64,000 nucleotides of DNA. It comes from Lentisphaeria bacterium. GTDB taxonomy: Bacteria > Verrucomicrobiota > Lentisphaeria > Oligosphaerales > Oligosphaeraceae. The stretch spans positions 15 through 64,014 of the forward strand of contig JAKSPB010000017.1 in the NCBI GenBank assembly GCA_024405215.1. Reading direction: 5' to 3'. How positions within the stretch are numbered: the stretch's first letter is position 1; the number at the start of each line of letters is the position of its first letter. The translations under genes and the position numbers were made by a program. Shown here in pieces: positions 2,848 to 64,000 of this stretch. The notes under the pieces were generated by a model. The model saw nothing but the letters and a program-made list of their open reading frames with translations. It made no database searches and was not told where the DNA came from.

Positions 2848-3479
2848 TACAGGAATCTCCTGCTCACAGCGGACCAGATTTCATCGGCCAGTTCCTCCAC
2901 GGGCTTGGCGGCGGAGAAGGTCACGAAGCGTCGGGGATTTTCCTTGGCGATTTGCAGGAAGCCATTGCGGACCGCCTCGTGGAAACGGCGTCCTTCGATT
3001 TCGAAGCGGTCGCTGTCGGCTGCCGTTGCCTTGAGGACGTTGTCCAGGCGTGCGAAACTTTCCTCCACGGTGAGGTCCAGGAGGATGGTGAGGTCCGGCC
3101 AGCGGTTTCCCAGGGCGAATTGGTTCAGCTGCCGGATGAACGCCAGGTCCATTCCGCGTGCATATCCCTGGTAGGCGGTGGTGGAGTCGGCGAAGCGGTC
3201 GCAGAGCACGACCTGGCCTTCTTCCAGCGCCGGCCAGATGCGTTCCCGCAGGAGTTGCGCGCGGCTGGCGGAGAAGAGTAGCAGTTCCGTTTCGTCGGCG
3301 ATGTTTTCCGCCCGGTTCTTCATGACCAGTTCGCGCACCTCTTCGCCCAGTGGCGTGCCGCCGGGTTCGCGGGTGCATAGGACCGCCTTTCCCATTTCCT
3401 GGAAACGTTTGGCGAGGAGGCGGATCTGCGTGGATTTTCCGGCCTTGTCCACGCCCTCGAATGTAATGAAGAAGCCCAT
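2847..3479 (-). CDS. tmk: Thymidylate kinase (dTMP kinase)
   Basis: N-terminal P-loop FITFEGVDKAGKSTQ, the DRF motif (LCDRFADST), and a length of 210 aa. Confidence 0.9.
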   Translation of the reverse strand: MGFFITFEGVDKAGKSTQIRLLAKRFQEMGKAVLCTREPGGTPLGEEVRELVMKNRAENIADETELLLFSASRAQLLRERIWPALEEGQVVLCDRFADSTTAYQGYARGMDLAFIRQLNQFALGNRWPDLTILLDLTVEESFARLDNVLKATAADSDRFEIEGRRFHEAVRNGFLQIAKENPRRFVTFSAAKPVEELADEIWSAVSRRFL

Positions 3480-3490
3480 GGTCTGGAGTG

Positions 3491-6400
3491 TTAGAATGGT
3501 AAGGAAGAGAGATATTTCACCATCGCGGCGTTGACGGAGGTGAAGCCCAGTTTTCTGGGGAGCGCCTTGAGGATGACTTCGGGAGCCGCGTCAATGTAAT
3601 CTTGTCGGATCTCCTCGTAGGCGGCCTTGAGTTCGCAGTAGGGAATTTCTTCCAGGGGACGACGGTCTTCCGGAGTGGCGGGAACGCGATAGCCGCGGAA
3701 GTTCTCGGCCTGCTGCGCGTCCATCCAGATGGTCTTTTCCTCGCCGTCGGTTGTGACATGGCATGGCAGCTGTTCCAGGACCTGCCGGATGAAGGAATCG
3801 TTGGTTTCGGTGCTCTTCAGGCCCTTCCACTGCTTGCGGATTCGCGGCAGGAGGAAGTCCTGCTTCAGCGGCGCTTCCGTGGCCAGGATTCCCGTTGCGT
3901 ATTCCTGGATCAGTTCCTTGGTGCGGCCATTGTCCTGGAAGAGCCTGGCGGCCAAAGGCTCCGGCACCTGCCAGCGCTGGAAGGACTGCGGTACAGGCAG
4001 CGAGACGACTTCTTGCTTTGGTTCAACAGGCTTGGAAGGGGGTTCAACAGGCTTGGCGGAGGGCTTTTCCGCCTGGTGCGCGGGTGTGGCGGGCTTTGCC
4101 GGGGATTGCGCCTGCCGGAGGGCCAGGAGCAGTGCGGCTTTCGCGCCTTCCGGGTCCTGCTGCCATTCGGCTGCCCAGGCGTGGCAGAGGTTCCAGCCAA
4201 GGCCCTTCAGGACGCCGGGACGGGTGGATTCCCGGTCGCGGCAGGTGAGGCCCTGCGCGTCTCGCTCGCTGTCGCAGAGAATGCCCAGGAGATATTCGCC
4301 CGGTTTCTCCGGGGACTTGACCGCCAGGTCGATGCGGAAGCGCGAGCAGCCCACGTTTCGCTCCACTTGGTATCCGGCGTCGGCCAGGACTTTCGCGATG
4401 GCCTCCTGGGACAGGCCGCCGGCCTCGCCCACGGCGGCTGCCGCGGTCTTGCTGCCGATGCCGTGTTCCGCGTATTCGAGGAACTCCTTCAGGTGCTGTG
4501 CGCCGTTGGCCGATGTGCGGTTCAGGTCCACCTGCGCAGCGTGGATGGAGGAGAAGACCACCACGCGCTCCTTGGCACGGGTGATGGCCACGTTCAGGCG
4601 TCGTTCGCCGCCTGCGCGGTTGAGGGGGCCGAAGTTCATGAGGAGCTTCCCGTCCGCATCGGGGGCGTATCCCACGCTGAAGAGGATGACATCCCGCTCG
4701 TCGCCCTGGACATTTTCCAGGTTCTTGACGAAGAAGGGTTCCGGCAGGGAGTCGTCGAAGGCCTCCTCCAGTTCAGGATGCGCGGCGCGGAACTGTTCGA
4801 AGCGGTCCTCGATGAGCGTACACTGGCTGATGTTGAAGGTGACCACGCCGATGGACTTCCTGCGCTGCGCGGGGTCCGCCAGCATTTTGCCGACGTATTT
4901 CACGATGGCGTCGGCTTCCATGGGGTTGCAGCGGTTCCGCCGGTCGAAGACCGCGTTCTCCTGGAACTCGAAGTGCACACCCAGGGCCGGGCTGTCCTTG
5001 GCGGCGGGGAAGGTGTTCAGGCGGTTCTCGTAGTAGTGCGCATTGCTGAAGGCGATGAGGGATTCGTGGCGGCTGCGGTAGTGCCAGTTCAGGTAGGAGG
5101 ACTCCACGCCGACGGCCAGGCATTCGTCCAGGATGCTCTCCAGTTCGGCCACGTCCTCGTCGTCCTCGAGGTCCTCGTCTGCCGCGGTCTTCTGGAAAAA
5201 GGCCGTTGGCGGCATCTGCATCCGGTCGCCGACGCAGATGAACTGCTTTCCGCGGGCGATGGCGCCGACGGCGTCCGCCACGGGAATCTGGGACGCCTCG
5301 TCGAAGACGACCAGGTCGAACTGGCTTTCCGGCGGCAGATACTGCGCCACGGAGAGCGGGCTCATCAGGAAGCAGGGCTTCAGCGTGGGAAGAAGCGGCG
5401 CGATGTTCTGCAAGATGGTGCGGACCGGACGGATGCGGCTCTTCTTCTCGCATTCGCGGCGCAGGAAGGCGATGGCGGTGCCTTCCAGGGGTTTCTCCGA
5501 TTTCAGGGCCTTGGGAAGCTTGTGGGTGAGCTTGGCGATGGCCAGCTTCGCCGCCAGGGACTGGTATTCCGCGTCCAGTTTCTGGAACTCCTCGATGCGG
5601 TGCTCCTGGCGTGTCCCGATGAAATCCGCCAGCAGCGGCTTGGTCGCAAGGGTCTGCGTCATCATGGCGTCCAGCAGTCGGTGCTTGACTGCGTCCAGGA
5701 GTTTCGTGGGGTGCAGGGCGTCCTCTTCCATGGCGTCAAGGAAAGGGGTCAGGCCGATGGCTTCCGCGTCCGTGCGGCTTTGGCGCCAGATGCGGTAGGG
5801 GCGCAACGAGGAGATGGCGTCAAGGGCGGAGCGGAGCGCCTCTGGGAGTTCGCCTGCGGGGATCTTCCGGGCGGGACGTTCGGCCATGGCGGCTGCGGCT
5901 TGAAGGACGGCGAGGGCCTTCCGGCAATCCACGTATGCCGCCTTGTAGGCACGGGCTGCTTCAGGAGGCGCGTCGCCTTCCTGCAAGGCAAGGCGGGAGG
6001 CGGAACGTGCGCCAAGCATTTCCAGTGCCTGCGCGATGTTCCGGACGGTCTCCAGCTGCTTCTCCAGTTTTGTCCAGTCTGGCGTGGCCTCCAGCCATCC
6101 AGGCTGATTCAGGGCGGTGCCGAACTCCTTGAAACGCGAGGCGTTGGTTTTCAGCAGCTCCTGGGCCCGGGCGAGCATGGGCACCTCCTTTGCGAGGTCG
6201 TCTGCGGAACGGCGCGGAGTGCCTGCCTGGCAGAAGGCTGCCGCCTCCTTTCCCAGGCTTCGGTTGGCGAAGATTCTAGCCAGGAAGAACTTCCCTGCAT
6301 TTTCCTGAAGGCGCTTTTGGAAATCGTCCACGGGGATGGCGGCAAGTTCCTGCCAGCGGTATTGCGGCAGTGCGTCCGCCAATTGTCGGAACTCCTTCGC

Positions 6401-8140
6401 CGCGGCTAGCAGTTCGGTCCATTCGGTCATTTTCTCCGTCGGGACTTCCTCGCGGAAGGCGGCGGGCAGAGCGCGGAAGGGGGCGAGTTTTTCAGCCAGG
6501 CATTTCAAAGCGTCACGACGTTGTGCGGGCGTGGCTTCCGGCAACTCGTCAGGCAGGGCCAGGGCGGTCCGCCAGGTTGCGTCGGCTTCTGCGAATGTTT
6601 TCGCCAAGGGAATTGCGGCAGCAAGGGCGTCGGCGGTCTTTGCCGTGTCCAGGCCGTTCCAGTCCAGCGGGCAGGCGAAGATCCGGAGCTGCCGGCAGAG
6701 TTCCGGATTGACGGCGGAGAAGCCATCCAGCGCGGTGCGGAGGGTGTCGGTCAAGTGCTGGAGGTCCTCCTTGGTCTGTGCGAGGAGATTTTCGGGGGGC
6801 TGCCATCGGATGGCTGGCGCGGGATCGTCCCGCAAGGCTTCCGCCGCACATTGGAAGGGAGTGATTCCGTTGAGGGCGGGGGTGTGGAGCGCCTGGATAT
6901 AGGCGTCCAGGTCCTTCCGGCGTTGCTGGAGCTGGGGAATCAGTGTCTGCCAGCGGTCCGGTTCCGGGGAATCGCCCAATTCCAGCGTAGAGCGGAGCTG
7001 GGCCAGCAATTCGGTCTTTCCGGCATGGTTGGAGTGCAGCTCCAGGCAGAAGGGCTGGAGCCCCAGCTTGGCCAGGCGGCGATAGACGACATCCAGTGCG
7101 GCCTTCTTTTCCGAGACGAAAAGGATCTTTTTCCCGTGGACCAAGTTATGGCAGATCAGGTTGGCGATGGACTGACTTTTTCCCGTGCCGGGAGGGCCGT
7201 GGAGGACGAAGCTCTTGCCGGCTGCCGCATAGAGGACTGCCGTCAGCTGGGAGGAATCCGCCGCCAAGGGGCAGTAAAGTTCCTGCCAGTTCGTGTTCGA
7301 ATCCACCTCTTCGGGCGGAAAGACGGAGATGCCGTCGTCGTAGACGCCGCGGGTGCCTTCGATGAGGTGGTTGACAAGCGGCTGTTTTGCCAGTTCCTCC
7401 GCACGGTTTGCCAGGTCATTCCACATCAAATACTTGGCGAAGGAAAAACGCCCCAGGTAGAGCTGTTCCTCCAGGGAGAAGTCCGGCAAGGCGGAGAGCT
7501 TCTGCGAGACGATGTCCAGAATCTTCCGGAGGTCGGTGCCGTGTTCGTCCTGCGGTAGAGGCTCCAGTTCGGGGAATTCCACCTTGAAGTCCCGCTTCAG
7601 ATACTCCAGAAGCGTGGTGTTCAGGCGGGTCTCCTCGTCCAGCTGCATGATGGAGAAATTCTTGACGGAAGCGCGTTCCAGGCGTACGGGGAGCAAGACA
7701 ATTGGTGCCAGATGGAAGACCTTCTCGCCCAATGGCTTGTATTTTATGACGCCGAAGGCCAGGAAGAGGGTGTTGATGTCGCCTTCCTCCTGGTCCAGCT
7801 TGCCTTTGCGGTAGAGTTCCAGCTGACGTCGCCCCAGCTCCCTTGCCGACAGCGCGGAGAGGAGGGTGGTTGGTTTCCTGTCCGCGGCCGCCAGCTGTTC
7901 CTGTGCGTCGTCAAAGGATCGGAGCTTTGCGAACTCTTCGGGGGAAAGACAATTCTCCAGGGAGTCCAAGGTGAGGGTTTCTCCGTCGGCGACCAGATTT
8001 TCCAAGGCGACCAGGTCCTTGCAGGCCAGGCGGATTGCCTGCTGGCCGTCCCGCAGGTTCAGCAGATGGTTTCGGAGGGAGAGGTCCAGGAGCTGCTGCT
8101 GCCAGCGATCCAGTCTTTTTTGCGCGGTAGGGGAGAACAT
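3491..8140 (-). CDS. Large SF1 (Upf1-like, COG1112-type) helicase with DUF4011-like N-terminus, REase-like domain and DUF3320-like C-terminus
   Basis: Walker A GPPGTGKSQSI; motif II VVFDEASQI; NWHYRSRHESLIAF; VQGDERDVILFS; RLNVAITRAKERVVVF. These are followed by FRIDLAVKSPEKPGEYLLGILCD (PD-(D/E)xK/DUF559-like), a Pro/Ala/Lys linker with repeated KPVEP, and a C-terminal domain. 1549 aa. Confidence 0.8.
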   Translation of the reverse strand: MFSPTAQKRLDRWQQQLLDLSLRNHLLNLRDGQQAIRLACKDLVALENLVADGETLTLDSLENCLSPEEFAKLRSFDDAQEQLAAADRKPTTLLSALSARELGRRQLELYRKGKLDQEEGDINTLFLAFGVIKYKPLGEKVFHLAPIVLLPVRLERASVKNFSIMQLDEETRLNTTLLEYLKRDFKVEFPELEPLPQDEHGTDLRKILDIVSQKLSALPDFSLEEQLYLGRFSFAKYLMWNDLANRAEELAKQPLVNHLIEGTRGVYDDGISVFPPEEVDSNTNWQELYCPLAADSSQLTAVLYAAAGKSFVLHGPPGTGKSQSIANLICHNLVHGKKILFVSEKKAALDVVYRRLAKLGLQPFCLELHSNHAGKTELLAQLRSTLELGDSPEPDRWQTLIPQLQQRRKDLDAYIQALHTPALNGITPFQCAAEALRDDPAPAIRWQPPENLLAQTKEDLQHLTDTLRTALDGFSAVNPELCRQLRIFACPLDWNGLDTAKTADALAAAIPLAKTFAEADATWRTALALPDELPEATPAQRRDALKCLAEKLAPFRALPAAFREEVPTEKMTEWTELLAAAKEFRQLADALPQYRWQELAAIPVDDFQKRLQENAGKFFLARIFANRSLGKEAAAFCQAGTPRRSADDLAKEVPMLARAQELLKTNASRFKEFGTALNQPGWLEATPDWTKLEKQLETVRNIAQALEMLGARSASRLALQEGDAPPEAARAYKAAYVDCRKALAVLQAAAAMAERPARKIPAGELPEALRSALDAISSLRPYRIWRQSRTDAEAIGLTPFLDAMEEDALHPTKLLDAVKHRLLDAMMTQTLATKPLLADFIGTRQEHRIEEFQKLDAEYQSLAAKLAIAKLTHKLPKALKSEKPLEGTAIAFLRRECEKKSRIRPVRTILQNIAPLLPTLKPCFLMSPLSVAQYLPPESQFDLVVFDEASQIPVADAVGAIARGKQFICVGDRMQMPPTAFFQKTAADEDLEDDEDVAELESILDECLAVGVESSYLNWHYRSRHESLIAFSNAHYYENRLNTFPAAKDSPALGVHFEFQENAVFDRRNRCNPMEADAIVKYVGKMLADPAQRRKSIGVVTFNISQCTLIEDRFEQFRAAHPELEEAFDDSLPEPFFVKNLENVQGDERDVILFSVGYAPDADGKLLMNFGPLNRAGGERRLNVAITRAKERVVVFSSIHAAQVDLNRTSANGAQHLKEFLEYAEHGIGSKTAAAAVGEAGGLSQEAIAKVLADAGYQVERNVGCSRFRIDLAVKSPEKPGEYLLGILCDSERDAQGLTCRDRESTRPGVLKGLGWNLCHAWAAEWQQDPEGAKAALLLALRQAQSPAKPATPAHQAEKPSAKPVEPPSKPVEPKQEVVSLPVPQSFQRWQVPEPLAARLFQDNGRTKELIQEYATGILATEAPLKQDFLLPRIRKQWKGLKSTETNDSFIRQVLEQLPCHVTTDGEEKTIWMDAQQAENFRGYRVPATPEDRRPLEEIPYCELKAAYEEIRQDYIDAAPEVILKALPRKLGFTSVNAAMVKYLSSLPF

Positions 8141-53526: not shown

Positions 53527-56037
53527 TCATTTTGCCTCCTGCATTGAAAGCAATGCCTCTTGCACTTGTTCTGCTGTATTTTTGCACAGTTGTCTCTCTT
53601 CTGTCCTGCCGTCCGGGACCAAAGGAGCAAGGAAGCGGACGGCCACTTTTTTTCCGAACCTTGGTATTTTCGCCCACCTTGGCAGAACATCGTAGGCGCC
53701 CCGGATGGCGACGGGGACGACGGGAACGCCCGTTTTAAGAGCCAGTTGCGCAAACATCGGGCGGAACTCGCCGAGGCTTCCGTCCATGGTGCGGGTTCCT
53801 TCGGGGAAAATGACGACGGACTTGCCAGCGCGCAGAATCGCCTCCAGCTGTTCCAGCGACTGATGGAGATTGCCGTTGATTTCCATGGGGATCAAATTAT
53901 GCCGTGCGGCGAACCAGCGTTTGAAAGTGCCGTCGAAGTATTTTGAAATGGCAAAGAAATAGGTATTCCTGAACTGGCTGCCGGTCATTGCGCTGGCAAG
54001 GTAGAAGCCGTCAAGCAGGCTTTCGTGATTCGGGGCGAAGATGCAAGGCTTTGCGAGAATGTTCTCGGTTCCCTCAATGACCAGCCGTGAAAGAATGCGC
54101 ATGCCTGCCGAAATGATCAAGCGCATTCCGCCGTGAGTCCAGGCTGCGGAATGACAGGGAACTGCCCGTGCGGTATGTTGTTGATAGCCTGTGTCTCCGT
54201 GCATGGAATCCAATGCTTCAGCAAGCAAGCGCCCCGTGGGATATTTGGCGAGCAGGCTCATGTCTATTTCCCTGCCAAGTTCTTTGCCCAATGCAGAGGC
54301 AGTCGCCACCTTGCCCAGGGAATCCAGATTCAGTTCCAGTTCGAAATGCTCGTCAGGGCCGACTGCGGGGCGTCCGATGACTTCCGCCAGGCATTGGCAG
54401 ATTTTCCTTTCAAGCGTAGAGGAGAAAACGACTTGTTTCTGTTCGACGCGTCTGTCCTTTTCCTGCCCCTGCAATCCGTTTTGCAGGAACTGGCGTATGA
54501 CATGCCGCCGAAGTTTGCCGAGACGCGTGCGCGGAAGCGGCCGGTCGCTCAATTCCAGCCGCGCGATTCGCTTATAGGACGGAACAGCTTCGTTATAGGG
54601 TTCGATGACCTTGTCCATGAATGTCTGCTTGATGTTGAGCACCCCGCGGGCGGCCAGGGCCTCCGTGTCCGGAACGAGAATGGCGACAAGATGATGATTG
54701 TCGTCGGAGACCGCGCACTCGGTGAACATCCCGTCTGCATATTCCATTAGCTTCTGCTCCAGCTCGGCCGGATTGATGTTCTTGCCGTTGCCGAGGATGA
54801 TCAGCTCCTTGCTGCGCCCGGTAAGGAACAGAAAACCGTCCTTGTCCACATATCCGAGATCTCCAGTATGCAGCCAGCCCTCCGAATCGATGATTTGCGC
54901 AGTTTCCTCCGGACGGTTGTAGTACCCCTTCATGACGTTTTTGCCCCGGACCAGAACCTCGCCGTTCTGTATGCGGATTTCATTGCAGGGGATGGGCTTT
55001 CCCGGAGAACCTGGCTTGTGGCGGTCAGGCGGCGTGAAGGAAATCATGGGAGCTGTCTCCGTCATGCCGTATCCCTCCAGCAGATGGAAGCCCATGGCAT
55101 AGAAATCGCGTGTGACCTGGGGATCTGCCGCTGCGCCTCCCGATGCGATGTATCGGATATGCCCGCCAAAGGCCTCCTGTATCTTTTTGAACAGGAACCT
55201 GGAAAAACGAAGCGAACCGATGGCTGCCGACAGGGACAGCATGAAACGTCCGAAGCGCACATCCTGAATCTTCTTCAGCATGGAATTGCGGAAGATTTCA
55301 AGCAGGCGCGGAACACCGATGATGAACGTGCACTGGTTTTGACGAAGAGCGGAAATGATGGCGTTGCCGGTCAGGCTTGAAGCGAAGACCGCCGTTGCCC
55401 CGATGGTCATGGGCATGACAAGGCTTCCCATCAGCGGATAGGAATGATGAAGCGGCAATGCCACAAGCACTTTGTCCTCGGGGATGAAGACTTCTGTCTG
55501 AACCGTGCAGGCTTCCGCGTTTGCCCTCAGATTGCCGAAGGTCAGCATAACACCCTTGGGGGTGCCTGTCGTGCCGGACGTGTAGATGATCAATGCCGTG
55601 TCTTCATCTGGGGATTCTTCAGAGAATGGGAATGGAAAAGCCTCCGCAGGGGGCTCGAGAAAATGCCGTTGCTGCTCAAGAATCAGAAACGACGGCGATG
55701 CAGTTTCAGTTAAATTGGTCGCCTCCTGCACTTTTGCCTCGGAGGCGGCGTCCGTAAAGACCGCAATTGGAGAACAATCCTGAAAGATATACGCAATTTC
55801 CTCTGACGTAGACATATAGTCGATAGGAACCGCGACAAGCCCCGCATGCCAGACGGCATAGAGGGCAAGAACCCATTCCGGCGAATTGGCACCGATGACG
55901 GCTATGCGTTCACCCGGAGCATGCTCTTTGCGCAGCGCGTCGCCAAGAGAAGATATGCCATGCAGCAGATTTTTGTAGTGAATGCGCCTGTCATTACACA
56001 CCAGGGCGGTCTTGTCAAAATACTTCAGCCATTTCAT
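53527..56037 (-). CDS. Tri-domain fusion: acyl-AMP ligase (adenylation) - phosphopantetheine carrier - PlsC-type lysophospholipid acyltransferase
   Basis: IYTSGTTGTPKGVMLT and GWLHTGDLGYVDKDGFLFLTGRSKELI (AMP-binding). ELELNLDSLGKVA (carrier Ser). FAPNHESLLDG (HX4D) and VIFPEGTRT (LPLAT blocks). RBS aggagac lies before the ATG. Confidence 0.85.
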   Translation of the reverse strand: MKWLKYFDKTALVCNDRRIHYKNLLHGISSLGDALRKEHAPGERIAVIGANSPEWVLALYAVWHAGLVAVPIDYMSTSEEIAYIFQDCSPIAVFTDAASEAKVQEATNLTETASPSFLILEQQRHFLEPPAEAFPFPFSEESPDEDTALIIYTSGTTGTPKGVMLTFGNLRANAEACTVQTEVFIPEDKVLVALPLHHSYPLMGSLVMPMTIGATAVFASSLTGNAIISALRQNQCTFIIGVPRLLEIFRNSMLKKIQDVRFGRFMLSLSAAIGSLRFSRFLFKKIQEAFGGHIRYIASGGAAADPQVTRDFYAMGFHLLEGYGMTETAPMISFTPPDRHKPGSPGKPIPCNEIRIQNGEVLVRGKNVMKGYYNRPEETAQIIDSEGWLHTGDLGYVDKDGFLFLTGRSKELIILGNGKNINPAELEQKLMEYADGMFTECAVSDDNHHLVAILVPDTEALAARGVLNIKQTFMDKVIEPYNEAVPSYKRIARLELSDRPLPRTRLGKLRRHVIRQFLQNGLQGQEKDRRVEQKQVVFSSTLERKICQCLAEVIGRPAVGPDEHFELELNLDSLGKVATASALGKELGREIDMSLLAKYPTGRLLAEALDSMHGDTGYQQHTARAVPCHSAAWTHGGMRLIISAGMRILSRLVIEGTENILAKPCIFAPNHESLLDGFYLASAMTGSQFRNTYFFAISKYFDGTFKRWFAARHNLIPMEINGNLHQSLEQLEAILRAGKSVVIFPEGTRTMDGSLGEFRPMFAQLALKTGVPVVPVAIRGAYDVLPRWAKIPRFGKKVAVRFLAPLVPDGRTEERQLCKNTAEQVQEALLSMQEAK

Positions 56038-56211: not shown

Positions 56212-57720
56212 ATGTTTACTGATGCAGAGCGAAGCCAAATCAGGCTTATTGGTGATCTGATATACACCAATCCGTTTGGTGAACGTCGGCAGGAGATAGA
56301 GCATCGGCTTCTCGGCAGGAAGCATATCCAGCGGTTCCGTGTCTGGCATAGTTTGGACGGTGATTTCTCCACCAACCTCAACCTGCCGGAATTGGAAAAA
56401 CTTTGCGGAAGGCTGGTGGAGCGCGGTCTGTCTTTTCTAAAGGGAGAGGGGTTGCCTGTCCAGGATGATGTCCTCACGGAGTGGGATCTGCTGGTCATCT
56501 ACTGGCTGTTTTCCCGCTACAGCGCCAGCATGAGCGGAAATATCTATCTTCCAAGCGGCAGCGAGGAGGCCAGCGCGAAACTCTATGGGAATTTCCTGGA
56601 TGACTACAATAATCTGGTTCAGAACATACGGCGCGGGCGTCCTTCCGCCTATCAGCCGGAAAAGATCTTCGCCATGTTCCACCAGGTTCACCGGGCGTTC
56701 AACTATATCTTCGACTATATTGGCGGCGGAACCGAAGCTGCGGCGCGTCTTAGGTGCGCCATCTGGGAATCCATATTCTCCCACGATATGAACCGCTATT
56801 ACCGCCAGCTTCATTCGAAGATGAACGGCATCACGACGCTGATTACCGGCGAATCTGGAACCGGAAAGGAACTTGCCGCACAGGCAATTGCCTATTCGCA
56901 ATACATTCCGTTCGACGGGGGAAAACAACGTTTCGCGCGGTCTTACAGAGATTGTTTTCGCGCTGTCCAGCTCTCCGCGCTGCCGCCGACCCTGATAGAA
57001 TCAGAGCTGTTCGGCCATGTCCGCGGCGCTTTCACGAACGCCATTCACGACAGGAAGGGATGCTTTGAAAACTGTCTGGAGGGTATGGCCGTTTTTTTGG
57101 ATGAAATCGGCGATATTTCTCTCGAAGTGCAAGTCAAACTTCTAAGGCTGCTACAGACCAGGCAGTTCTGCCGCATAGGTGATTCCGAACCACGTGAATT
57201 CAGTGGCAAGGTGATTGCCGCCACCAATGCCGATCTCTCTGAAAAATGCGCGGATGGGCAGTTCCGTCAGGATTTTCTCTTCCGTATCTGTTCGGATGTC
57301 ATACGGACATCTCCCCTCAGAACGCTTCTGGACGGACGCGAAGAGGAACTGCGACAGATGGTTCTGATTCTCTCCAGGCGTCTCCTTGACGCACAGGAAG
57401 CCGTTTCCTTCGCACAGGAAAGTTCCGACTGGATCATAGCTCATCTGGGCGTGGACTACACTTGGCCTGGCAACGTTCGCGAACTGGAACAGTGCCTGCG
57501 GAATCTTCTTTTGCGCGGCAGCTATTCGCCGCTGGTCAAAGAGGAGGCTGATAACGACGATATCGGCACGAGGATGATGAAAAGCGGCTGTACCTTGGAT
57601 GAGTTGACGCACCGCTACGTTAATGCGCTCTATCAAAGGGAGGGTTCCGTCGCCGGAGTGGCGCGCCAATCCGGCATGGACCGCCGCACCATCAGAAAAC
57701 TCCTTGACAGAGAAAAGTAA
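56212..57720 (+). CDS. Sigma-54-dependent transcriptional activator (enhancer-binding protein, EBP) with uncharacterised N-terminal domain and no receiver domain
   Basis: Walker A GESGTGKELAAQAIA, ESELFGHVRGAFTNA (a GAFTGA-loop variant), Walker B VFLDEIGD, RQDFLFRI, and a C-terminal Fis-type HTH VAGVARQSGMDRRTIRKLL. Confidence 0.85.
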   Translation: MFTDAERSQIRLIGDLIYTNPFGERRQEIEHRLLGRKHIQRFRVWHSLDGDFSTNLNLPELEKLCGRLVERGLSFLKGEGLPVQDDVLTEWDLLVIYWLFSRYSASMSGNIYLPSGSEEASAKLYGNFLDDYNNLVQNIRRGRPSAYQPEKIFAMFHQVHRAFNYIFDYIGGGTEAAARLRCAIWESIFSHDMNRYYRQLHSKMNGITTLITGESGTGKELAAQAIAYSQYIPFDGGKQRFARSYRDCFRAVQLSALPPTLIESELFGHVRGAFTNAIHDRKGCFENCLEGMAVFLDEIGDISLEVQVKLLRLLQTRQFCRIGDSEPREFSGKVIAATNADLSEKCADGQFRQDFLFRICSDVIRTSPLRTLLDGREEELRQMVLILSRRLLDAQEAVSFAQESSDWIIAHLGVDYTWPGNVRELEQCLRNLLLRGSYSPLVKEEADNDDIGTRMMKSGCTLDELTHRYVNALYQREGSVAGVARQSGMDRRTIRKLLDREK

Positions 57721-57881
57721 AGGCACGGGAACACCAGGAGATTCCTGGAACGTTTTCAGAGATTTCCAACGGGTATCTCTTGATGGCTTTTGTGCTCAAA
57801 GCCTACTTTGTAATCTGCCGTCTTGCTCCCCTATGTTGGTGTGTCACCGCCAGATTACAAAAAGTCGGCAAAAATGGGGCT

Positions 57882-57895
57882 GTGTCACGTGACAC
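57882..57895. promoter_or_regulatory. Perfect 14-bp palindrome GTGTCACGTGACAC, with an extra GTGTCAC half-site at 57841-57847
   Basis: Read directly. It lies in the 508-bp non-coding gap downstream of both convergent genes. The extra half-site sits in the loop of an 11-bp inverted repeat tttgtaatctg/cagattacaaa (57807-57861). Confidence 0.4.
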
Positions 57896-58228
57896 CACAG
57901 ACTTTTGGTGTTTTTTCATCCTCTGTCGTCCGGATTTAAGGCATTTTACTCACAAACGAATATTTGGACCAGACGGGGGGGGCGCAGCGCGGAGCGTCTG
58001 CAAGGGCAAAGTGCTTTTTGTGGCAGGCGTGACGCTGAAATCCCCGGTTTTCGTTTAATGACGAAATGGCTGAACGGCCTGGTAGCCTATAACATCTAAG
58101 TCTTTATCATCCTTCGCTCTTTTCGTGCCTTTGCCCCGGTCTGCTCCTTGCATAGCGACTATGCGCGGTCGCTGGCCGAAAAAGGCTCGAGAATACCTGT
58201 CGTCTGGATGACTTTCAGGCGTTGCAGA

Positions 58229-58729
58229 CTACGTGTCTTCCGTTTCCGCGCCGTCTGACGGCTTCAGGCCAAAGCCGGACGCCAGCCACTTCCCGGCGGT
58301 GACCCGTGACACTTTCACGCCGAACTTCGCCTTCACCAGTTCGGCCACGGCCGCGAAGGTCCATCGCCGGAAAGGGAGTTGATAGTCGACAGGGTGGGCG
58401 GCCGCGACGGCGTCCCGCAGTTCGGCCATCTGGCGCTCGTCCAGAAGCCTTCCGCTACCCACGCCGCCCCCGCGCACTTTTTCGCCGTGGAAGATGCGCA
58501 GGTCTCCGGACCGGAACGCCTTGAGCCAGCGTTTGACCGTCACGACGTTCACGCCGAGCATCCGCGCAACAGTCCCTGTCTTATGCCCGCAGCGGAAAAG
58601 GCTGTACGCACTGGCGCGGACGGCCATGCGCGTCTCCAGGCTGCTGGACTTCAGGTCGAGCATGGTCTTCGTGACACGGACAACGCCGTTTTCCGGAAGA
58701 ATGATCATCTTCGCATCCGTATTCATCAT
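58229..58729 (-). CDS. IS630-type transposase N-terminal DNA-binding module only (HTH + winged HTH), no DDE domain
   Basis: Start MMNTDAKM at 58729/58726. GHKTGTVARMLGVNVVTVKRWLKAF (HTH) and RWTFAAVAELVKAKFGVKVSRVTAGKWLASGFGLKP (the pattern of the IS630 wHTH). The protein ends 13 aa later. The start lies 8 nt after the upstream stop. Confidence 0.65.
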   Translation of the reverse strand: MMNTDAKMIILPENGVVRVTKTMLDLKSSSLETRMAVRASAYSLFRCGHKTGTVARMLGVNVVTVKRWLKAFRSGDLRIFHGEKVRGGGVGSGRLLDERQMAELRDAVAAAHPVDYQLPFRRWTFAAVAELVKAKFGVKVSRVTAGKWLASGFGLKPSDGAETEDT

Positions 58730-58737
58730 CGTGTTAG

Positions 58738-60531
58738 TTATACTGGGCGCGCTTCCAGTCCAAGGGACCGGGCGTATTGTCCGACATCGCCTCCGAATTT
58801 CAGCGTCACGTCGCAAGCGGCGACTTCTCCTTGCAGTCTGACGAAATTTCCATCTGCCGAGTAGCACAGTTTTTCCGCATCCCAGAAACGGGCATCCCCC
58901 TCCGCGAACCAGAGAGTGACCCTGCAGCCTTCGCCGACTTCCACCGTGTCGTTCCCCCATTTGCCGTCAAAGACGAAGACGGCGTCGTCCCGCCGGGACA
59001 CGAGGACGTCGTCGCCGTCGCCTCCGACGAAGACCGCTGCCGCGCTCCCGCCCCAGAGGACGTCGTCGCCGTCGCCTCCGTGCAGCAGGCACGGAACGCC
59101 ATCCTCATTGAAGTCCCGGCAGGTCAGATCCACGATGTCGTCGCCGCCGCCGGCATAGATTGCGGTGACATTCTGGATCCTGCTTTCGGCCAGGCGTTCC
59201 CAGCCGCTGTACACGTCCTCCGCGAAAACGGCATCATCACCGTCCGTGAGGACAAGAACGGCATCTGCGGATGGCTGCCCAGCGAACACATCCGAGAAAC
59301 GGTTCTTCCCCTGGATGGAGATGCTTTCGCCAGTATGCGTGTTGAAGGCCAGAAAGTCGGCGTCCCATTTTCCCGAAGGCTCCGCGAGGAAGACCGCCGG
59401 GAGTCCATCCCCGGCGGCGGCGATCCTGGCCGGCCCGTCATGAACCGTCTCGTGCGCAATCTGCGCCGGCGCGTAGTCTTCCGCGAAGAAATCCCTGGTC
59501 GTGACGGAGGCTTCGTCCGTACGTGAATAGACATGGACTGCCGGTCCGGCGGTCCACAGGCCCGAACAGGCCGCCACGACTCCGTCCCTGAGGATTCTCA
59601 TGTCCTGCCGGTTGGCCACGGTGAGGACAAGCCCGCCGTCGGCAAGGGCGAAGTCATATCTGGCGTCCGTCGTCGCGGAAACGCCGTCGCCGTCCGTCGC
59701 GCCGCCGCCGTCCGCGCATATTGAAATCGCCAATTCGGAATCGAAACCGTCCGCGCGCTCCGCGAGGCGGTAGTTTCCGGACGCCTGATGCTCTTGGACG
59801 AGGATCCTGACTTTTCCAGGCGCGCAATCCGCCTTCCATTCGTCGAGCAGGGCCGGTTCCTGCGGCATTCGCCCCGCAAGAAGAAAATCCAGGGACGCGT
59901 CGGACAGGTCTGCGCCGAACAGTCCCGCGCACCTTCCTTCGACGGAAACCGTTCCGGACAGTTTCGTCCCGTTCCCGAAACGGCAGACCGCGTCTTCCGT
60001 CAGACGGCAGTTCGCGATTTCTCCCGGCGTCCTTGAAACCATGGTTCCGCCCGCGACGGCGACGTCCCTGGCGGTTCCTCCGGAGAGCTCCATTCTTCCG
60101 CCTGGCAAGATCTCGACGCCTTCGAGGAGGCAGCCGTTCGCGTAGACGTACCCTCCGGCAACCGTCAGCCCGTACGCCGAACTCCCGGCGTACATGTACA
60201 GCGCTCCGTCCACGGTGACGGCGGCGCCGTCCAGGACGGTGGCGTTGTACAACCTGACGGTTCCGTCAATTTCCGCATTTGAGAGAAATCCGTCATACGC
60301 GGAGACGCTTCCATGGCCGGAATCTCCCGAGCAAACGGTGAAATTCCCGACATGGCCGCCGTCCTGCACAGTAAGGGCGCAGCCGCCTCCGACGACGACG
60401 TTCCATGCGGCCCCGCCGCCCAGGACGAACATGTCATACCCGCCGCCGTCGGCAAGCACGACGCCGTCCAGGCTTTCGCCGCTTTCCGTCAGTCTGCCGT
60501 TTTTGTAGATCTGCACGCTTAATTCCGACAT
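58738..60531 (-). CDS. Leaderless beta-helix repeat protein (AIDA-like GG-x-A-x-x-T-V repeats) with RTX-type calcium-binding nonapeptides
   Basis: The preferred start MSELSVQIYKNG (60531) has no signal peptide. Repeats include VVVGGGCALTVQDGGHV and ELSGGTARDVAVAGGTMV. The C-terminal third has GGDGDDVLW and GGDGDDVLV (GGxGxDxUx) plus GGGDDIVDL. In-frame upstream ATGs exist at 60729 and 60630. Confidence 0.65.
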   Translation of the reverse strand: MSELSVQIYKNGRLTESGESLDGVVLADGGGYDMFVLGGGAAWNVVVGGGCALTVQDGGHVGNFTVCSGDSGHGSVSAYDGFLSNAEIDGTVRLYNATVLDGAAVTVDGALYMYAGSSAYGLTVAGGYVYANGCLLEGVEILPGGRMELSGGTARDVAVAGGTMVSRTPGEIANCRLTEDAVCRFGNGTKLSGTVSVEGRCAGLFGADLSDASLDFLLAGRMPQEPALLDEWKADCAPGKVRILVQEHQASGNYRLAERADGFDSELAISICADGGGATDGDGVSATTDARYDFALADGGLVLTVANRQDMRILRDGVVAACSGLWTAGPAVHVYSRTDEASVTTRDFFAEDYAPAQIAHETVHDGPARIAAAGDGLPAVFLAEPSGKWDADFLAFNTHTGESISIQGKNRFSDVFAGQPSADAVLVLTDGDDAVFAEDVYSGWERLAESRIQNVTAIYAGGGDDIVDLTCRDFNEDGVPCLLHGGDGDDVLWGGSAAAVFVGGDGDDVLVSRRDDAVFVFDGKWGNDTVEVGEGCRVTLWFAEGDARFWDAEKLCYSADGNFVRLQGEVAACDVTLKFGGDVGQYARSLGLEARPV

Positions 60532-60740
60532 ACGGAGCCCTTGTGTTTTCGATAGCCTTTCCCGCGGTCCGCGCATGCCATTCCGGACGGACGACGCATC
60601 GCATTTCCGCAGGCGGGAATCAAGATTCATTCCTGTAATTGCAGACGCGGACCCCAGGGCCGCGCGCCTGCGCCGGCGAAGCGGATGGTCGCCTCCCCCC
60701 CGGGGAATCAGGAAGGGGAGACGGCGCATTCCCGGACTTG

Positions 60741-60914
60741 TCAGTCCTCGTATTCCTCTTCGCCCGTCCCGCCGTCGTCGTAGCCGCTTTCTCCGCGGAC
60801 CGCGCCGCCCGCCATGGACATCTCGACGAGAACCGGCGAATCGTACGGCAGTTTCCCGGGATTCCGTTTTTTTTCCTCCTGGGCGGTTGTCGGTTCAACT
60901 GTTTTTTCTGTCAT
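60741..60914 (-). CDS. 57-aa highly acidic small protein (P1), paralogous to 63880..63948
   Basis: MTEKTVEPTTAQEEKKRNPGKLPYDSPVLVEMSMAGGAVRGESGYDDGGTGEEEYED. The ATG is preceded by gggagacaggaaa. It starts 17 nt after the upstream stop. A conserved paralogue lies upstream of the neighbouring beta-helix gene. Confidence 0.5.
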   Translation of the reverse strand: MTEKTVEPTTAQEEKKRNPGKLPYDSPVLVEMSMAGGAVRGESGYDDGGTGEEEYED

Positions 60915-60931
60915 TTTCCTGTCTCCCTGGG

Positions 60932-63820
60932 TTATGCAATTGCAAGCAAAAGTCTGTGTTCTGCATCTTCGTACAGCCTGTAGTCGACTCCGGCACAGCT
61001 TCCGGTGAAGATCCCGTCGCCGTCGTCGTCGGTCATGGCGCTGCCTCCAAGCGTGATTTCCGCCTTCTTCCAGCCGTTGAGCGTCCCCGCGTCGCCGGCC
61101 AGCAGCACGGCGGGCGTCGAATCCTGCACGTAGCCGTCCGCGAACGAGAGGCTGATCGAGTCGCCCGCGAAGTCGTTCATGCCGCCCTGCCACGAGAGGA
61201 TCGTCCCGTCTCCGCCGATTTCGAAGTCCCACGCCTTCGTGTAGCGCAGGTCCACGTTGCCGGCCGTGAAGCCGATGCCGGACGAGCCGTTCACGAAGGA
61301 CACGTTGGAGAATCCGTTGTTCATGTTGGCGCCGAAGTCTCCGGAGAAGCCGTCGAAGACAAGGAAGCGCGCGTCGCGGTCGGCGTTGCCCTTGACGAAC
61401 GTCTTCTGGGCGTATGCATAGTGGTACGCGAGCTTGCTTCCGCCGCTGACGTAGGAACTTTCGGAGAACGAGAGGTTCTCCCCGTTCCCTTTGAAGGTCA
61501 TCGTCGTGGTCCCGAGAATCGCGCCTTCGCCCATGCTTCCCGCGTAGAGGTTGCCTCCGAAGGAGACGCGGTCGCCGGCCGACGCGTCGACGGTGACCGT
61601 CACGCTGCCGGTGACGATAGTCTTCGTGCCGTTTTCGTTGCTGTTCGCCCCGTTGCCGCCGAAGACGCTTTTGGCGAACGTCCCGCCGCTGATTTCAAGC
61701 GTCGAGCTGCCGACGGTCACGCCGTTGCCGTTGGAATATCCGCCGGCGTAGACCAGGTTGGTGAAGGAGCCGCCCGTGATGGACAGGCTCGTCTTCGTGA
61801 TCTGCGTGTTCACGGTGCCGTCCGCGCCGCCGCCGACAGTCTTGCAGCCGTTGCCGACGTAGCTGAGGAACCTCCCGCCGCCGATCTCCGTGCTCACCGT
61901 GCCGGCGGCGAAACTGCCGCCGTTCTCCAGCAGCGCGCCGCCCCAGAGTGCGCCCATGTCGCCGGTGACGTCGCAGTTGATGTTGACGTCGCCTACGGAC
62001 ATCTGATTCCCCGACGCGTGCCCGCCGGCGTAGATGTACGCCTTCTCCCGCGTCCCTGTGCCGGTGAAGCTCAGGTTCACCGTCTTGGAGCCCATGCCAA
62101 TGTCGGCGGATACGCATTCCCCCGCGCCGAACACCAGGGAGCCGGCCGACATGGCCACGTCGTGGAAGTTCAGATTCACCTCTTCGACCGCCTTGTCGAC
62201 CTTTCCGCCGATCATCGTCGCGTCCAGGGCCACGCCGTCCCACGATGTCGTGTATCCCTGCGCGATGTAGCGCTGCGCGACCGTGCCGCCGCCGTGCAGG
62301 ACGGTGTCCTCGCCGGAATAGCTGACGCCGGCTGTTCCGCCGCTCAGTTGCGCGTTCAGCGTATTGGTGCCGTAGAGCTCCACCGTGGCGTCGTTGTAGA
62401 TGCCGTCGGTTTCCGTCACAAAACTGCTGTCGGCAATTTCTGCATAACCGATATTGTATATTGCGCCGCCACACGTTCCGGCCGTGTTGCCGGAGAATGT
62501 GGAGGCGCTTATGGACGCAGTGCCCATATTGCACACTGCGCCGCCTTCGACTCCGGCCGTGTTGCCGGAGAATGTGGAGGCGCTTATGGACGCAGTGCCC
62601 ATATTGCACACTGCGCCGCCTTCGACTTCGGCCGTGTTGCCGATGAACTTCATGTTCGTCAGCGTGATGTCCGCATCCATGTAGGCTCCGCCACCTGCGT
62701 TTCCGGCCACGTTCCCTGAAACGACGGTATCTTCCACTCCACCCCAAGATGAAACGTGGAAGGCGCCTCCGTCGTGTGCTGCCGTGTTCTGGCAGAACTC
62801 CGATTTCGCAACGCTGAGTTTCCTGTTGCCTCTGCTGGAAACATATATCCCGCCGCCGTCGGACGCCCTGTTCCCGGTAACGCTGGAGGATTCCATCTCC
62901 ATCTCGAAATTCTGGTAAATCGCTCCGCCGTACCTCGTCGCTTCGTTGTCGGTGAATGTAGTGCCGGTGATTATGCCTGTTCCTGGCAAACTGGTCGAGG
63001 AACCGATTGCTCCGCCATCCGTGCCTGCCTTGTTGCCGTCAAAAAAGGAATCGCGAACTTCCAGCTGACAGCGTTCAGCGGTTACGTATGCGTAGAAATA
63101 CAAGGCTCCTCCAATCTTGCCTGATGTATTTGATGTAAATGTCACATTATCCAGCAAGGTAAATTGGGAACTTTGAAGATAAAGCCCCCCTCCCGACCCA
63201 GTAATGGCCTTATTGCCTGTAAAATTGACTCCAGTGCATGTGGTGGTGGCCCCGCCAAGCACGCATCCTCCTCCTTGTAGATACGCGACATTATTCTCGA
63301 AATCTGTTGCAGAAATACTATTGACAGGGTTATAGAGTACTCCGCTAGCATTTACCGATGCGCTATGAATCGCGCCGCCATTCGGGGTGGAATACTGACT
63401 GGCGCCTTCTCGCAGAATGCATTCGTTACCGATGAACTTGCAATCTTCAATCGTGATAGTTACACATGCATCCGTGTTGATCACGGAATTCTCTAGAGCC
63501 GTGTTGTCAGCGATTGTGCAGTTTCTAAAAGTCACGTTTGAGCCTTCTCGGCTAGACACTAGAGAGCCATTGCTGCCGGCGACATATTTTTCATCCCTGA
63601 TTTCCGAATTGGAGATTGTAAGGGTAGTCCCTACGCCTGCTTTAATCGCAGCACAGGAGACCAGGGGGCTGCCCTGGAAGACGACGCCGTCGCCTGAAAG
63701 CACACCATGGTCTCCGACAGCCACCGCATAGTCATTCTCGACCGTAAACACAGTATCGCCGGGAAGCGTATATGTACCGTATGAAGGTACAACGGTTTGT
63801 TGAGTTATCACGTTCTGCAT
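60932..63820 (-). CDS. Leaderless polymorphic-membrane-protein (Pmp)-type repeat beta-helix protein, 962 aa
   Basis: More than ten GGA[ILV]/FxxN-type repeats, e.g. FTSNTSGKIGGALYF, FFDGNKAGTDGGAIGS, FTDNEATRYGGAIYQ and FSGNTAGVEGGAVCN. The N-terminus MQNVITQQTVVPSYG has no signal peptide. No recognisable autotransporter barrel at the C-terminus (...YRLYEDAEHRLLLAIA). Confidence 0.75.
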   Translation of the reverse strand: MQNVITQQTVVPSYGTYTLPGDTVFTVENDYAVAVGDHGVLSGDGVVFQGSPLVSCAAIKAGVGTTLTISNSEIRDEKYVAGSNGSLVSSREGSNVTFRNCTIADNTALENSVINTDACVTITIEDCKFIGNECILREGASQYSTPNGGAIHSASVNASGVLYNPVNSISATDFENNVAYLQGGGCVLGGATTTCTGVNFTGNKAITGSGGGLYLQSSQFTLLDNVTFTSNTSGKIGGALYFYAYVTAERCQLEVRDSFFDGNKAGTDGGAIGSSTSLPGTGIITGTTFTDNEATRYGGAIYQNFEMEMESSSVTGNRASDGGGIYVSSRGNRKLSVAKSEFCQNTAAHDGGAFHVSSWGGVEDTVVSGNVAGNAGGGAYMDADITLTNMKFIGNTAEVEGGAVCNMGTASISASTFSGNTAGVEGGAVCNMGTASISASTFSGNTAGTCGGAIYNIGYAEIADSSFVTETDGIYNDATVELYGTNTLNAQLSGGTAGVSYSGEDTVLHGGGTVAQRYIAQGYTTSWDGVALDATMIGGKVDKAVEEVNLNFHDVAMSAGSLVFGAGECVSADIGMGSKTVNLSFTGTGTREKAYIYAGGHASGNQMSVGDVNINCDVTGDMGALWGGALLENGGSFAAGTVSTEIGGGRFLSYVGNGCKTVGGGADGTVNTQITKTSLSITGGSFTNLVYAGGYSNGNGVTVGSSTLEISGGTFAKSVFGGNGANSNENGTKTIVTGSVTVTVDASAGDRVSFGGNLYAGSMGEGAILGTTTMTFKGNGENLSFSESSYVSGGSKLAYHYAYAQKTFVKGNADRDARFLVFDGFSGDFGANMNNGFSNVSFVNGSSGIGFTAGNVDLRYTKAWDFEIGGDGTILSWQGGMNDFAGDSISLSFADGYVQDSTPAVLLAGDAGTLNGWKKAEITLGGSAMTDDDGDGIFTGSCAGVDYRLYEDAEHRLLLAIA
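62492..62641. repeat. Near-perfect 75-bp tandem duplication inside the Pmp-repeat gene
   Basis: ggagaatgtggaggcgcttatggacgcagtgcccatattgcacactgcgccgccttcgac[t/c]tc... occurs twice (62492-62566 and 62567-62641) with one c/t difference. It encodes FSGNTAGVEGGAVCNMGTASISAST twice. Confidence 0.9.
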
Positions 63821-63857
63821 GTTTTATTTATTCCTTCTTTTTGATGTATGATCCAAT

Positions 63858-63884
63858 GCATGGCGTCAGAAGCATGGCGTCAGA
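63858..63884. repeat. 13-bp direct repeat gcatggcgtcaga x2 immediately upstream of the Pmp-repeat gene
   Basis: Copies at 63858-63870 and 63872-63884, separated by 1 nt. The second copy overlaps the stop of the small ORF P2. Confidence 0.85.
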
Positions 63885-63948
63885 CCTTGTATTCCTCGTT
63901 GTCTGCCTGAAAATCAATTTCAGGCATCTCGACGCTGAAATCGCGCAT
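63880..63948 (-). CDS. 22-codon acidic small ORF (P2), truncated or frameshifted paralogue of P1
   Basis: MRDFSVEMPEIDFQADNEEYKV. It shares the 10-mer catctcgacg (encoding VEM) and the 3' end with P1. Similarity continues upstream of its ATG (…SNYE) with no start codon there. The window ends at 64000. Confidence 0.3.
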   Translation of the reverse strand: MRDFSVEMPEIDFQADNEEYKV

Positions 63949-64000
63949 TTCGTAGTTAGAGACTACTTGCTTTTGGGGTAATCATTGTCTGTTCTTCTCC

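Follow-up and report, generated by a model that had tools for sequence, protein, structure and literature searches.

We analysed a stretch of 64,000 nucleotides (nt) from a Lentisphaeria bacterium (GenBank assembly GCA_024405215.1, contig JAKSPB010000017.1, positions 15 to 64,014 of the forward strand), called the window below and numbered from its first letter. The window takes up almost all of this contig (64,517 nt), which belongs to a metagenome-assembled genome. Our subject is P1, an open reading frame (ORF) of 57 amino acids (aa) that lies directly behind the gene of a large beta-helix protein, and the kind of peptide that it is likely to encode. An earlier note, made from the letters of this DNA, had described five consecutive minus-strand ORFs, and its order, lengths and spacers proved correct to the base:

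63948..63880, minus strand: P2, a 22-aa ORF, 59 nt ahead of the 962-aa ORF
63820..60932, minus strand: the 962-aa Pmp-repeat beta-helix ORF, 17 nt ahead of P1
60914..60741, minus strand: P1, 57 aa, 209 nt ahead of the 597-aa ORF
60531..58738, minus strand: a 597-aa Gly-rich ORF, with 5 nt past its stop codon (8 nt with the stop) to the next ORF
58732..58229, minus strand: a 167-aa helix-turn-helix (HTH) ORF, the N-terminal DNA-binding part of an IS630 transposase

The note had read this run as an operon with two copies of a two-gene module, each a small acidic ORF in front of a beta-helix gene. Comparison with related loci gave a different unit, in which the small gene follows its beta-helix gene, and points to P1 as the probable precursor of a ribosomally synthesised and post-translationally modified peptide (RiPP).

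The C-dom gene and the peptide that follows it

The part of the 962-aa protein that goes with the small ORF is its C-terminal domain (C-dom):

60935..61903, minus strand: C-dom, ~320 aa, the C-terminal domain of the 962-aa protein, ending ..DYRLYEDAEHRLLLAIA
60915..60931, minus strand: 17-nt spacer with a Shine-Dalgarno-like (SD-like) GGGAGA 8-9 nt ahead of the P1 ATG, invariant in 5 contigs

Homologues of C-dom were found at 27-65% identity in loci L008-L017, and in every locus with usable upstream DNA (27/27, with peptide ORFs of 40-59 aa) the C-dom gene ended 13-20 nt before the peptide ATG, across three divergent subfamilies (a, b and c). P1's close relatives, at 91% and 65% identity, were each found 17 nt past the same C-terminus, ..YRLYEDAEHRLLLAIA*, and when C-dom itself served as the query in metagenomes, each of the nine loci recovered (27-45% identity) carried an ORF of 40-51 aa 13-19 nt past the C-dom stop codon. 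With the profile of subfamily a, a HMMER search of 1.84 billion representatives yielded a single new relative, P0124, and this peptide, too, lies behind a gene whose product is homologous to the final ~320 aa of the 962-aa protein (65% identity). These loci show that the peptide is obligatorily linked to C-dom, and the conserved unit is a beta-helix protein with C-dom followed by a small ORF, present once in the window. A conserved, acidic, linked small gene does accompany the large one, and homologues of P1 with linkage to beta-helix genes do exist, as the earlier note had proposed; its placing of the small gene in front did not hold, since P1 follows the 962-aa gene and the peptides of all 27 loci stand downstream of theirs.

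The note had also assigned the 597-aa gene to P1 as its partner. That gene is replaced by others in near-identical strains, and it is the upstream 962-aa gene that diverges together with the peptide over 27-65% identity. P1 is followed by the 597-aa gene in L003 and L007, by a different Pmp-like gene in L006 and by another ORF in L001. Because the DNA 3′ of P1 differs in this way, we place the 597-aa gene and the IS630-derived HTH gene outside the unit, and the supposed operon ending with them is not a conserved one. Near-identical strains keep C-dom and P1 and then part sharply, L006 right after the P1 stop codon (60741) and L001 ~120 nt further on (~60621); the region 3′ of P1, with its IS630 remnant at 58229-58732, looks like a recombination hot spot.

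The large partners differ in their N-terminal repeats, which are of the Chlam_PMP type in the window, of the AIDA type in subfamily b and, in the subfamily c proteins (2000-3400 aa), of no family that was recognised; no signal peptide was visible in the large partners of the peptide family. An AlphaFold2 model of C-dom (last 323 aa, from a 4-sequence alignment) consisted of beta structure throughout, with a solenoid that leads into a terminal sandwich (predicted local distance difference test score 78, predicted template-modelling score 0.83). A Foldseek search of the model against the PDB gave nothing below E=0.07, the weak top matches being the passengers UpaB, pertactin and Ag43, and nothing in the modelled fold suggests an enzyme or a barrel. 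The minimum conclusion from the coupling of P1 to the 962-aa gene is co-expression.

Where the linkage was seen, the hosts were Lentisphaeria/Victivallales gut bacteria: a family member occurs in Victivallis vadensis, a cultured human-gut species (WP_277348724.1), and others in many gut metagenome contigs, with one peptide variant alone indexed in 59 blocks of the contig collection. Two scans of GTDB species genomes, based on the alignments of P1 and of C-dom respectively, returned nothing; because their back-translated patterns were specific to subfamily a, they do not show that subfamilies b and c are absent there. In the 90% cluster of the 42-aa peptide P0125 there also appears an 'OmpA family protein' of 1586 aa from Vibrio lentus; its membership is almost certainly an artefact of clustering.

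Coding status, leader and core of P1

P1 (MTEKTVEPTTAQEEKKRNPGKLPYDSPVLVEMSMAGGAVR|GESGYDDGGTGEEEYED, with the bar at the predicted leader-core boundary) is annotated as hypothetical protein MJ202_05345 (MCQ2403132.1), and a profile search with the family peptides gave a family of 35 clusters and 50 distinct sequences, all of 36-59 aa. Between the window and L006, the codons of the P1 motif differ by synonymous (CTG->TTA, CCG->CCT, GAG->GAA) or conservative changes (D/E, V/I, M/L). The ratio of nonsynonymous to synonymous substitution rates (dN/dS, Nei-Gojobori) lay at 0.11-0.30 in each of the three subfamilies, counting pairs with dS>0.4, the span listed for P1's own subfamily being 0.21-0.68. 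Because of these motif changes, the low dN/dS and the SD-like GGGAGA before the ATG, we take P1 as real: judged by how it has changed, it is shown to be a coding gene under purifying selection. One might still regard P1 as a chance ORF or a conserved untranslated element of the 3′ untranslated region, given its small size, its lack of a Pfam or NCBIfam family and the identity in DNA of its last 60 nt among close relatives. This is extremely improbable in view of a dN/dS well under 1 with numerous synonymous changes across subfamilies, the retention of frame, length and start with its SD in 50 distinct sequences, the lack of an Rfam match in 57700-64000 and a hairpin energy that is not above background. 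That hairpin lies behind the gene:

60685..60729, minus strand: GC-rich hairpin, GCCGTCTCCCC...GGGGGGAGGC, after the P1 stop codon; a possible transcript end

Its stem is retained in L006 despite diverged flanks. As a transcript end it is a weak candidate, because its energy is no better than that of shuffles (z=-0.56) and it has no T-run. We rejected the idea that P1 extends the 962-aa protein by read-through or frameshifting: P1 is set in a different frame by the 17-nt spacer and has an SD and ATG of its own, and spacers of 13, 15 and 19 nt in other subfamilies also speak against it.

The peptide divides into a predicted leader and a predicted core:

60795..60914, minus strand: predicted leader, aa 1-40, with Tyr-17, Pro-14, Leu-12, Val-2 and Arg-1 ahead of a putative cleavage site
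60828-60845, minus strand: YDSPVL motif of the P1 leader
60744..60794, minus strand: predicted 17-aa core GESGYDDGGTGEEEYED, with Gly1, Ser3, Asp6/Asp7 and an acidic tail

The family consensus is [K]-[LIF]-x-Y-[ED]-x-P-x-L-x-[EP]-[LM]-x5/6-[VIF]-[RQH]-G-x(1,2)-[ST]-[GC]..D.., and ends in an acidic tail. The family alignment shows no exception to Y, P, L and Gly1, and the Tyr stands exactly 17 residues ahead of Gly1 in subfamilies a and c, and at -16 in b. The YxxPxL of lasso leaders spans -17 to -12, and a subgroup of phosphorylated lasso peptides has Ile/Val, not Thr, at -2 (PMC10368454). P1 has the full set of lasso-precursor features that we looked for (YxxPxL at -17 to -12, Thr/Ile/Val at -2, Gly1, and Asp/Glu at 7-9), in the form of Y-17, P-14, L-12, V-2, G1 and D7, and its core is invariant among close relatives, at the DNA level included.

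The closest described counterpart is BsfA, encoded in the bsf cluster of Bradymonas sediminis, whose core Ser3 is phosphorylated by the HPr-kinase-like enzyme BsfK with the aid of BsfB1, a RiPP recognition element (RRE) of the PqqD type (PMC10368454). Taken as the translation of the bsfA gene printed in that paper (PMC10368454), BsfA scored 13.5 bits against the hidden Markov model (HMM) of our family (E=2.7e-6, as a single comparison), and the best of 2000 shuffles reached 6.8 bits; the leader-core signature is significantly similar to that of BsfA. When BsfA ...KLIYKKPQLTYHSTLAAIIR|GTSGNEVDG...D is lined up with P1 ...KLPYDSPVLVEMSMAGGAVR|GESGYDDGG...D, the two have in common a K-L-x-Y-x-x-P-x-L leader with its Tyr at -17, Ile/Val at -2 and Arg at -1, and a core that starts G-x-S-G, has an Asp a few residues on and a C-terminal Asp. 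In subfamily b cores (GDSSCTDG...ACPS...) Asp7 never varies, and neither do two Cys, which fall in the ring region and in the tail respectively. At the single Victivallis locus a constant leader precedes cores that differ from strain to strain, with the variants GATGVDPDPDPGEIV, GDITGVDPDHPGID, GEPSGVDPDPGPGEIV and GASADPDPGDIV; a constant leader with a variable core is usual for RiPP precursors. Two other peptide classes were tried and dropped: the GG of a double-glycine bacteriocin leader (..MAGG|) is not conserved (P0003 has ND), and P0124 has neither residue of a PqqA-like Glu/Tyr crosslink motif.

Genes for candidate modifying proteins lie beside the peptide in subfamily c. In these Victivallis-type loci (L013, L015-L021, L029-L032) a ScmC/HPr-kinase-like gene of ~290 aa stands directly 3′ of the peptide gene. 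Its product matches TIGR04249 (E=8e-12) and, in precomputed annotation, PF27840, and it has retained three features that are important in BsfK (PMC10368454), namely the His, the GxSxxGK[ST]T P-loop and the DD motif. Next, with a GTGA overlap, comes an 85-aa PqqD gene that encodes an RRE (PF05402; TIGR04248, E=1e-7; lasso PqqD model, E=0.0075). A tblastn match of the kinase P-loop to the RTX block of the window's 597-aa protein (E=8.2) was judged low-complexity noise. The orthologous Victivallis-type locus (L013, L016, L018-L021, L029-L032) varies across metagenomes in its giant protein, which ranges from 2028 to >3380 aa (gene ending at ~9981) and has no Pfam family; C-dom, leader, kinase and PqqD are constant. 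Just upstream of the giant gene in L032 (1-2662, minus strand) is a set of ThiF/E1, Prok-E2_D and Prok_Ub genes, possibly a defence island.

P2, the large proteins and the flanking DNA

If the module were duplicated within one operon, as the earlier note held, P1 and P2 would be paralogues, each ahead of a beta-helix gene. Part of what had led to this idea is sound: the 10-mer CATCTCGACG is present in both ORFs (60819-60828 and 63925-63934, with a third copy at 36180), and the count of 19/24 matching letters at their 3′ ends is correct, a 17/19 match there having a shuffle p~0.0015; order and frame agree between the two ORFs. In addition, an ATG at 63985, out of frame and preceded by an SD-like GGAG, lies 5′ of P2, which could then be the frameshifted remnant of a P1-type gene after a C-dom gene past the window's end. 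Paralogy failed, however, on protein shuffles, tblastn, the family HMM and the DNA chain score. As proteins, P1 and P2 align locally at best over EEY(E/K) alone (score 18; shuffle p=0.40-0.78), tblastn with P1 did not report P2 at E<=100, and an HMM of 13 family peptides, run with filters off on 1640 stop-to-stop ORFs of the window, found P1 at E=8e-19 and left P2 outside the top 25. A gapped DNA chain over the whole P1/P2 region scored 19.1, which 3% of random window segments equalled. The motif Y[DE]-x5/6-VEM attributed to P2 has its Tyr 5′ of the P2 ATG, outside the ORF, and no in-frame ATG, GTG or TTG stands between that Tyr and the stop codon at 63984-63982; P2 also lacks the family-invariant Pro, Leu and Gly1, and Ser3. 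With large proteins that are unrelated, a 597-aa protein without C-dom, different neighbours 3′ of P1 among strains and only one C-dom and one family peptide in the window, the duplicated module is largely refuted and very improbable. P2 is no demonstrable gene or paralogue; lying in the 5′ region of the 962-aa gene, it may represent either a degenerate copy or an ORF that arose by chance. A 14-nt direct repeat (GCATGGCGTCAGAA, 1.9 copies, 63858-63884) overlaps the P2 stop codon, and part of the 'conserved' 3′-end match, CTGAC, falls inside it.

The Pmp label of the 962-aa protein was borne out: it contains Chlam_PMP repeats (PF02415, E=8.8e-19, 6 stretches; TIGR01376, E=5.8e-16), of the type GGA[ILV]/FxxN, in its N-terminal half. 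Its N-terminus, MQNVITQQTVVPSYGT.., has no hydrophobic segment and hence no Sec signal peptide visible by eye, and Pfam and NCBIfam gave no match to a barrel family (C-terminal beta-barrel, PF03797). The protein therefore has the Pmp repeats of a classical (type Va) autotransporter and neither its signal peptide nor its barrel, in line with the earlier note, and the C-dom model and fold search added no sign of either. NCBI annotates only the last 737 aa of the gene, from a GTG (MJ202_05350, P0004), and the N-terminus of the 962-aa form is set by a stop codon one codon 5′ of its ATG (ORF label 63823). The G+C content is ~0.65 in 60932-62400, the 3′ two-thirds of the gene, versus ~0.48-0.52 in 62850-63820 and the P2 region; this drop and the 737-aa call from GTG suggest that the gene is recombinant (mosaic) or that its true start is uncertain. 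At 62477-62642, inside the Pmp-repeat region, a 75-nt unit occurs 2.2 times at 98% identity, so that a 25-aa unit, ..EGGAVCNMGTASISASTFSGNTAG.., is doubled in the protein; this is either an expansion that happened recently and in frame, or a place where the assembly may have collapsed.

PDB sequence searches with the two large proteins found no match, and the 962-aa and 597-aa proteins are not paralogues (BLASTP E>=0.13). Of the note's 'AIDA-like/RTX' label for the 597-aa protein, the second half has a sub-threshold basis: there is a single RTX-like block near residues 482-531, whose PF00353 match of 15.2 bits is below the Pfam cut-off of 23, with partial matches to the RTX regions of NCBIfam models up to E=3e-8, and the likeness to AIDA was not reproduced. 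The HlyD-like and MacB-like genes nearest to the 597-aa gene are ~38-40 kb off. The 167-aa HTH protein is, as had been supposed, transposase-derived. It corresponds to the first third of an IS630 transposase (positions 3-112 of a 299-position model, 56 bits versus a cut-off of 100) and is no full IS630 transposase, having the HTH and no DDE catalytic domain, and no ORF of useful size follows in 57721-58228.

The downstream flank holds an 836-aa AMP-binding/PP-binding/acyltransferase fusion (Aas-like) and a divergent sigma-54 enhancer-binding protein (53527-56037 and 56212-57720), in which we saw no tie to the P1 peptide. At 3491-8140 the window encodes a ~1530-1550-aa protein with DUF4011, superfamily 1 (SF1) helicase and MTES_1575 endonuclease regions; its counterpart lies convergent beside the subfamily b peptide in Victivallales L022-L024 (~3190-7770), which is probably coincidental synteny.

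Interpretation and comparison with known systems

Going by its leader and core, the P1 family is a set of lasso-type precursors in an unusual, cyclase-less genomic setting. We consider it rather likely that P1 is an RRE-dependent, probably Ser3-phosphorylated RiPP precursor of the lasso/BsfA lineage, co-transcribed with a Pmp-type beta-helix gene, with enzymes that would be supplied in trans and with uncertain cyclisation. In the mechanism that we propose, the YxxPxL strand of the P1 leader (aa 1-40) would be bound by a PqqD-type RRE, which would present the core GESGYDDGGTGEEEYED to an HPr-kinase-like enzyme for phosphorylation of Ser/Thr3. The leader might then be removed after Val-Arg, and Gly1 might be joined to Asp7 in a ring. 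The acidic peptide, in its presumably modified form, would act with or on the beta-helix protein, which we regard as probable because the peptide is inherited as a unit with C-dom; a role as partner, adaptor or inhibitor of that protein is possible.

A number of observations weigh against this reading. Pfam found neither a lasso cyclase (PF00733) nor a B2 protease (PF13471) among the 30 large ORFs of the window, and neither a kinase nor a PqqD gene was found in its 64 kb (Pfam on the same ORFs; tblastn, in which the L013 RRE reached E=0.34 at best). Beside the subfamily b peptides there is no kinase, PqqD, cyclase or B2 gene, and in subfamily c there is no cyclase or protease within 10 kb. The kinase and PqqD products of subfamily c stay well below the Scm equivalog cut-offs (45 versus 125 bits and 32 versus 100 bits) and resemble BsfK and BsfB1 weakly (BLASTP E=0.009 and 0.06). 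The distance from Gly1 to [ST]-G-V-D in subfamily c shifts by up to three residues, giving ring sizes of 6-9, and one variant has no Asp/Glu at positions 7-9. Finally, the more distant C-dom proteins P0008 and P0020 have no peptide ORF, so C-dom does not need the peptide.

Two other accounts have to be set beside ours. P1 could be a bona fide lasso precursor, cleaved after Val-Arg and cyclised from Gly1 to Asp7 by a B2 protease and a cyclase encoded elsewhere, its position behind the beta-helix gene reflecting co-regulation only. The exact leader geometry, Gly1, Asp7, the 17-aa core and the similarity to BsfA all fit, as do the invariant Asp7 and two Cys of subfamily b, which recall class III. 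Against it, no cyclase or protease was found at ~30 loci, and no cyclase, B2 protease or exporter at any locus, 20-kb views included (L011-L013, L016, L018-L024, L029-L032). Lasso precursor genes normally lie within their own biosynthetic cluster, and here the precursor stands away from any such enzymes; no paper in the library searched ties Victivallis to lasso peptides or mentions SynChlorMet. The variable spacing in subfamily c and the variant without an acidic residue at 7-9 disfavour a regular lasso ring, and the lack of cyclase, B2 protease and exporter together with this irregular spacing is why we did not file the loci, where neither an adjacent cyclase nor an adjacent B2 gene occurs, as lasso clusters. 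On balance we find this account rather doubtful.

The other account leaves P1 unmodified: as a small acidic protein it would attach directly to the beta-helix protein and serve as its chaperone, export adaptor, inhibitor or co-secreted partner. This account draws on the 13-20 nt linkage and co-divergence with C-dom in 27/27 loci, on the restriction of kinase and RRE genes to one subfamily and on the all-beta C-dom model with its exposed terminal sandwich, to which a YExPxL strand could add. It would also suit the large partners, which need unconventional handling because all are without signal peptides. It accords less well with a hypervariable core behind a constant leader, with the RRE and kinase of subfamily c, which are typical of RiPP precursors, and with the distant C-dom proteins that have no peptide. 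Because of the RiPP leader-core anatomy and the kinase and PqqD genes of subfamily c, we prefer a modified peptide to a plain chaperone, and judge the unmodified partner unlikely. A more specific form of the modified-peptide reading is offered tentatively, as possible though not the likeliest outcome: in Victivallales/Lentisphaeria a lasso-precursor lineage may have been co-opted, with RRE-guided phosphorylation by an HPr-kinase-like enzyme and no cyclase, so that the peptide became a dedicated partner of C-dom (a cap, an export or anchoring cofactor, or a regulator).

Because RiPP mining starts from the cyclase or protease, precursor-like genes far from their enzymes stay 'hypothetical proteins'. 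If kinase and RRE are all that modifies the peptides, the family would represent a cyclase-independent offshoot of lasso biosynthesis; should the peptides act on the beta-helix proteins, they would give a way into the question of how bacteria of the Planctomycetes-Verrucomicrobiota-Chlamydiae (PVC) group treat giant Pmp/AIDA-like proteins that have neither signal nor barrel. The partner reading, if true, would be a case of RiPP-adhesin coupling, possibly part of an undescribed handling route for giant signal-less beta-helix surface proteins. For annotation, the pair to use is the beta-helix protein with C-dom followed by the peptide, in place of the earlier module.

In the searchable literature we found no description of a lasso-type peptide coupled to a beta-helix gene, and the earlier remark that the arrangement matches no described system stands. 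The best family matches of the subfamily c kinase and PqqD genes are ScmC and ScmD of SynChlorMet (TIGR04249/TIGR04248). A SynChlorMet cassette includes two radical-SAM/SPASM genes; the subfamily c loci, with no radical-SAM gene, do not form one. Class III lasso peptides such as BI-32169 are the comparison for the two-Cys cores of subfamily b, with one Cys in the putative ring, one in the tail, and Asp7, whereas P1 itself has no Cys. From the bsf cluster the P1 family differs in having no B2 protease, cyclase or exporter nearby (and, in the window, no enzymes near P1), in the irregular ring-acceptor spacing of subfamily c, and in the tight attachment of its precursor gene to the 3′ end of a gene for a giant beta-helix protein. 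The 962-aa protein, for its part, is like Pmp/AIDA passengers in its Pmp repeats, its beta-solenoid C-terminal part and its combination of a variable passenger-like part with a conserved C-terminal module; unlike those autotransporters, it has no Sec signal and no barrel, and ends instead in a ~320-aa all-beta C-dom that is followed by a separate small gene.

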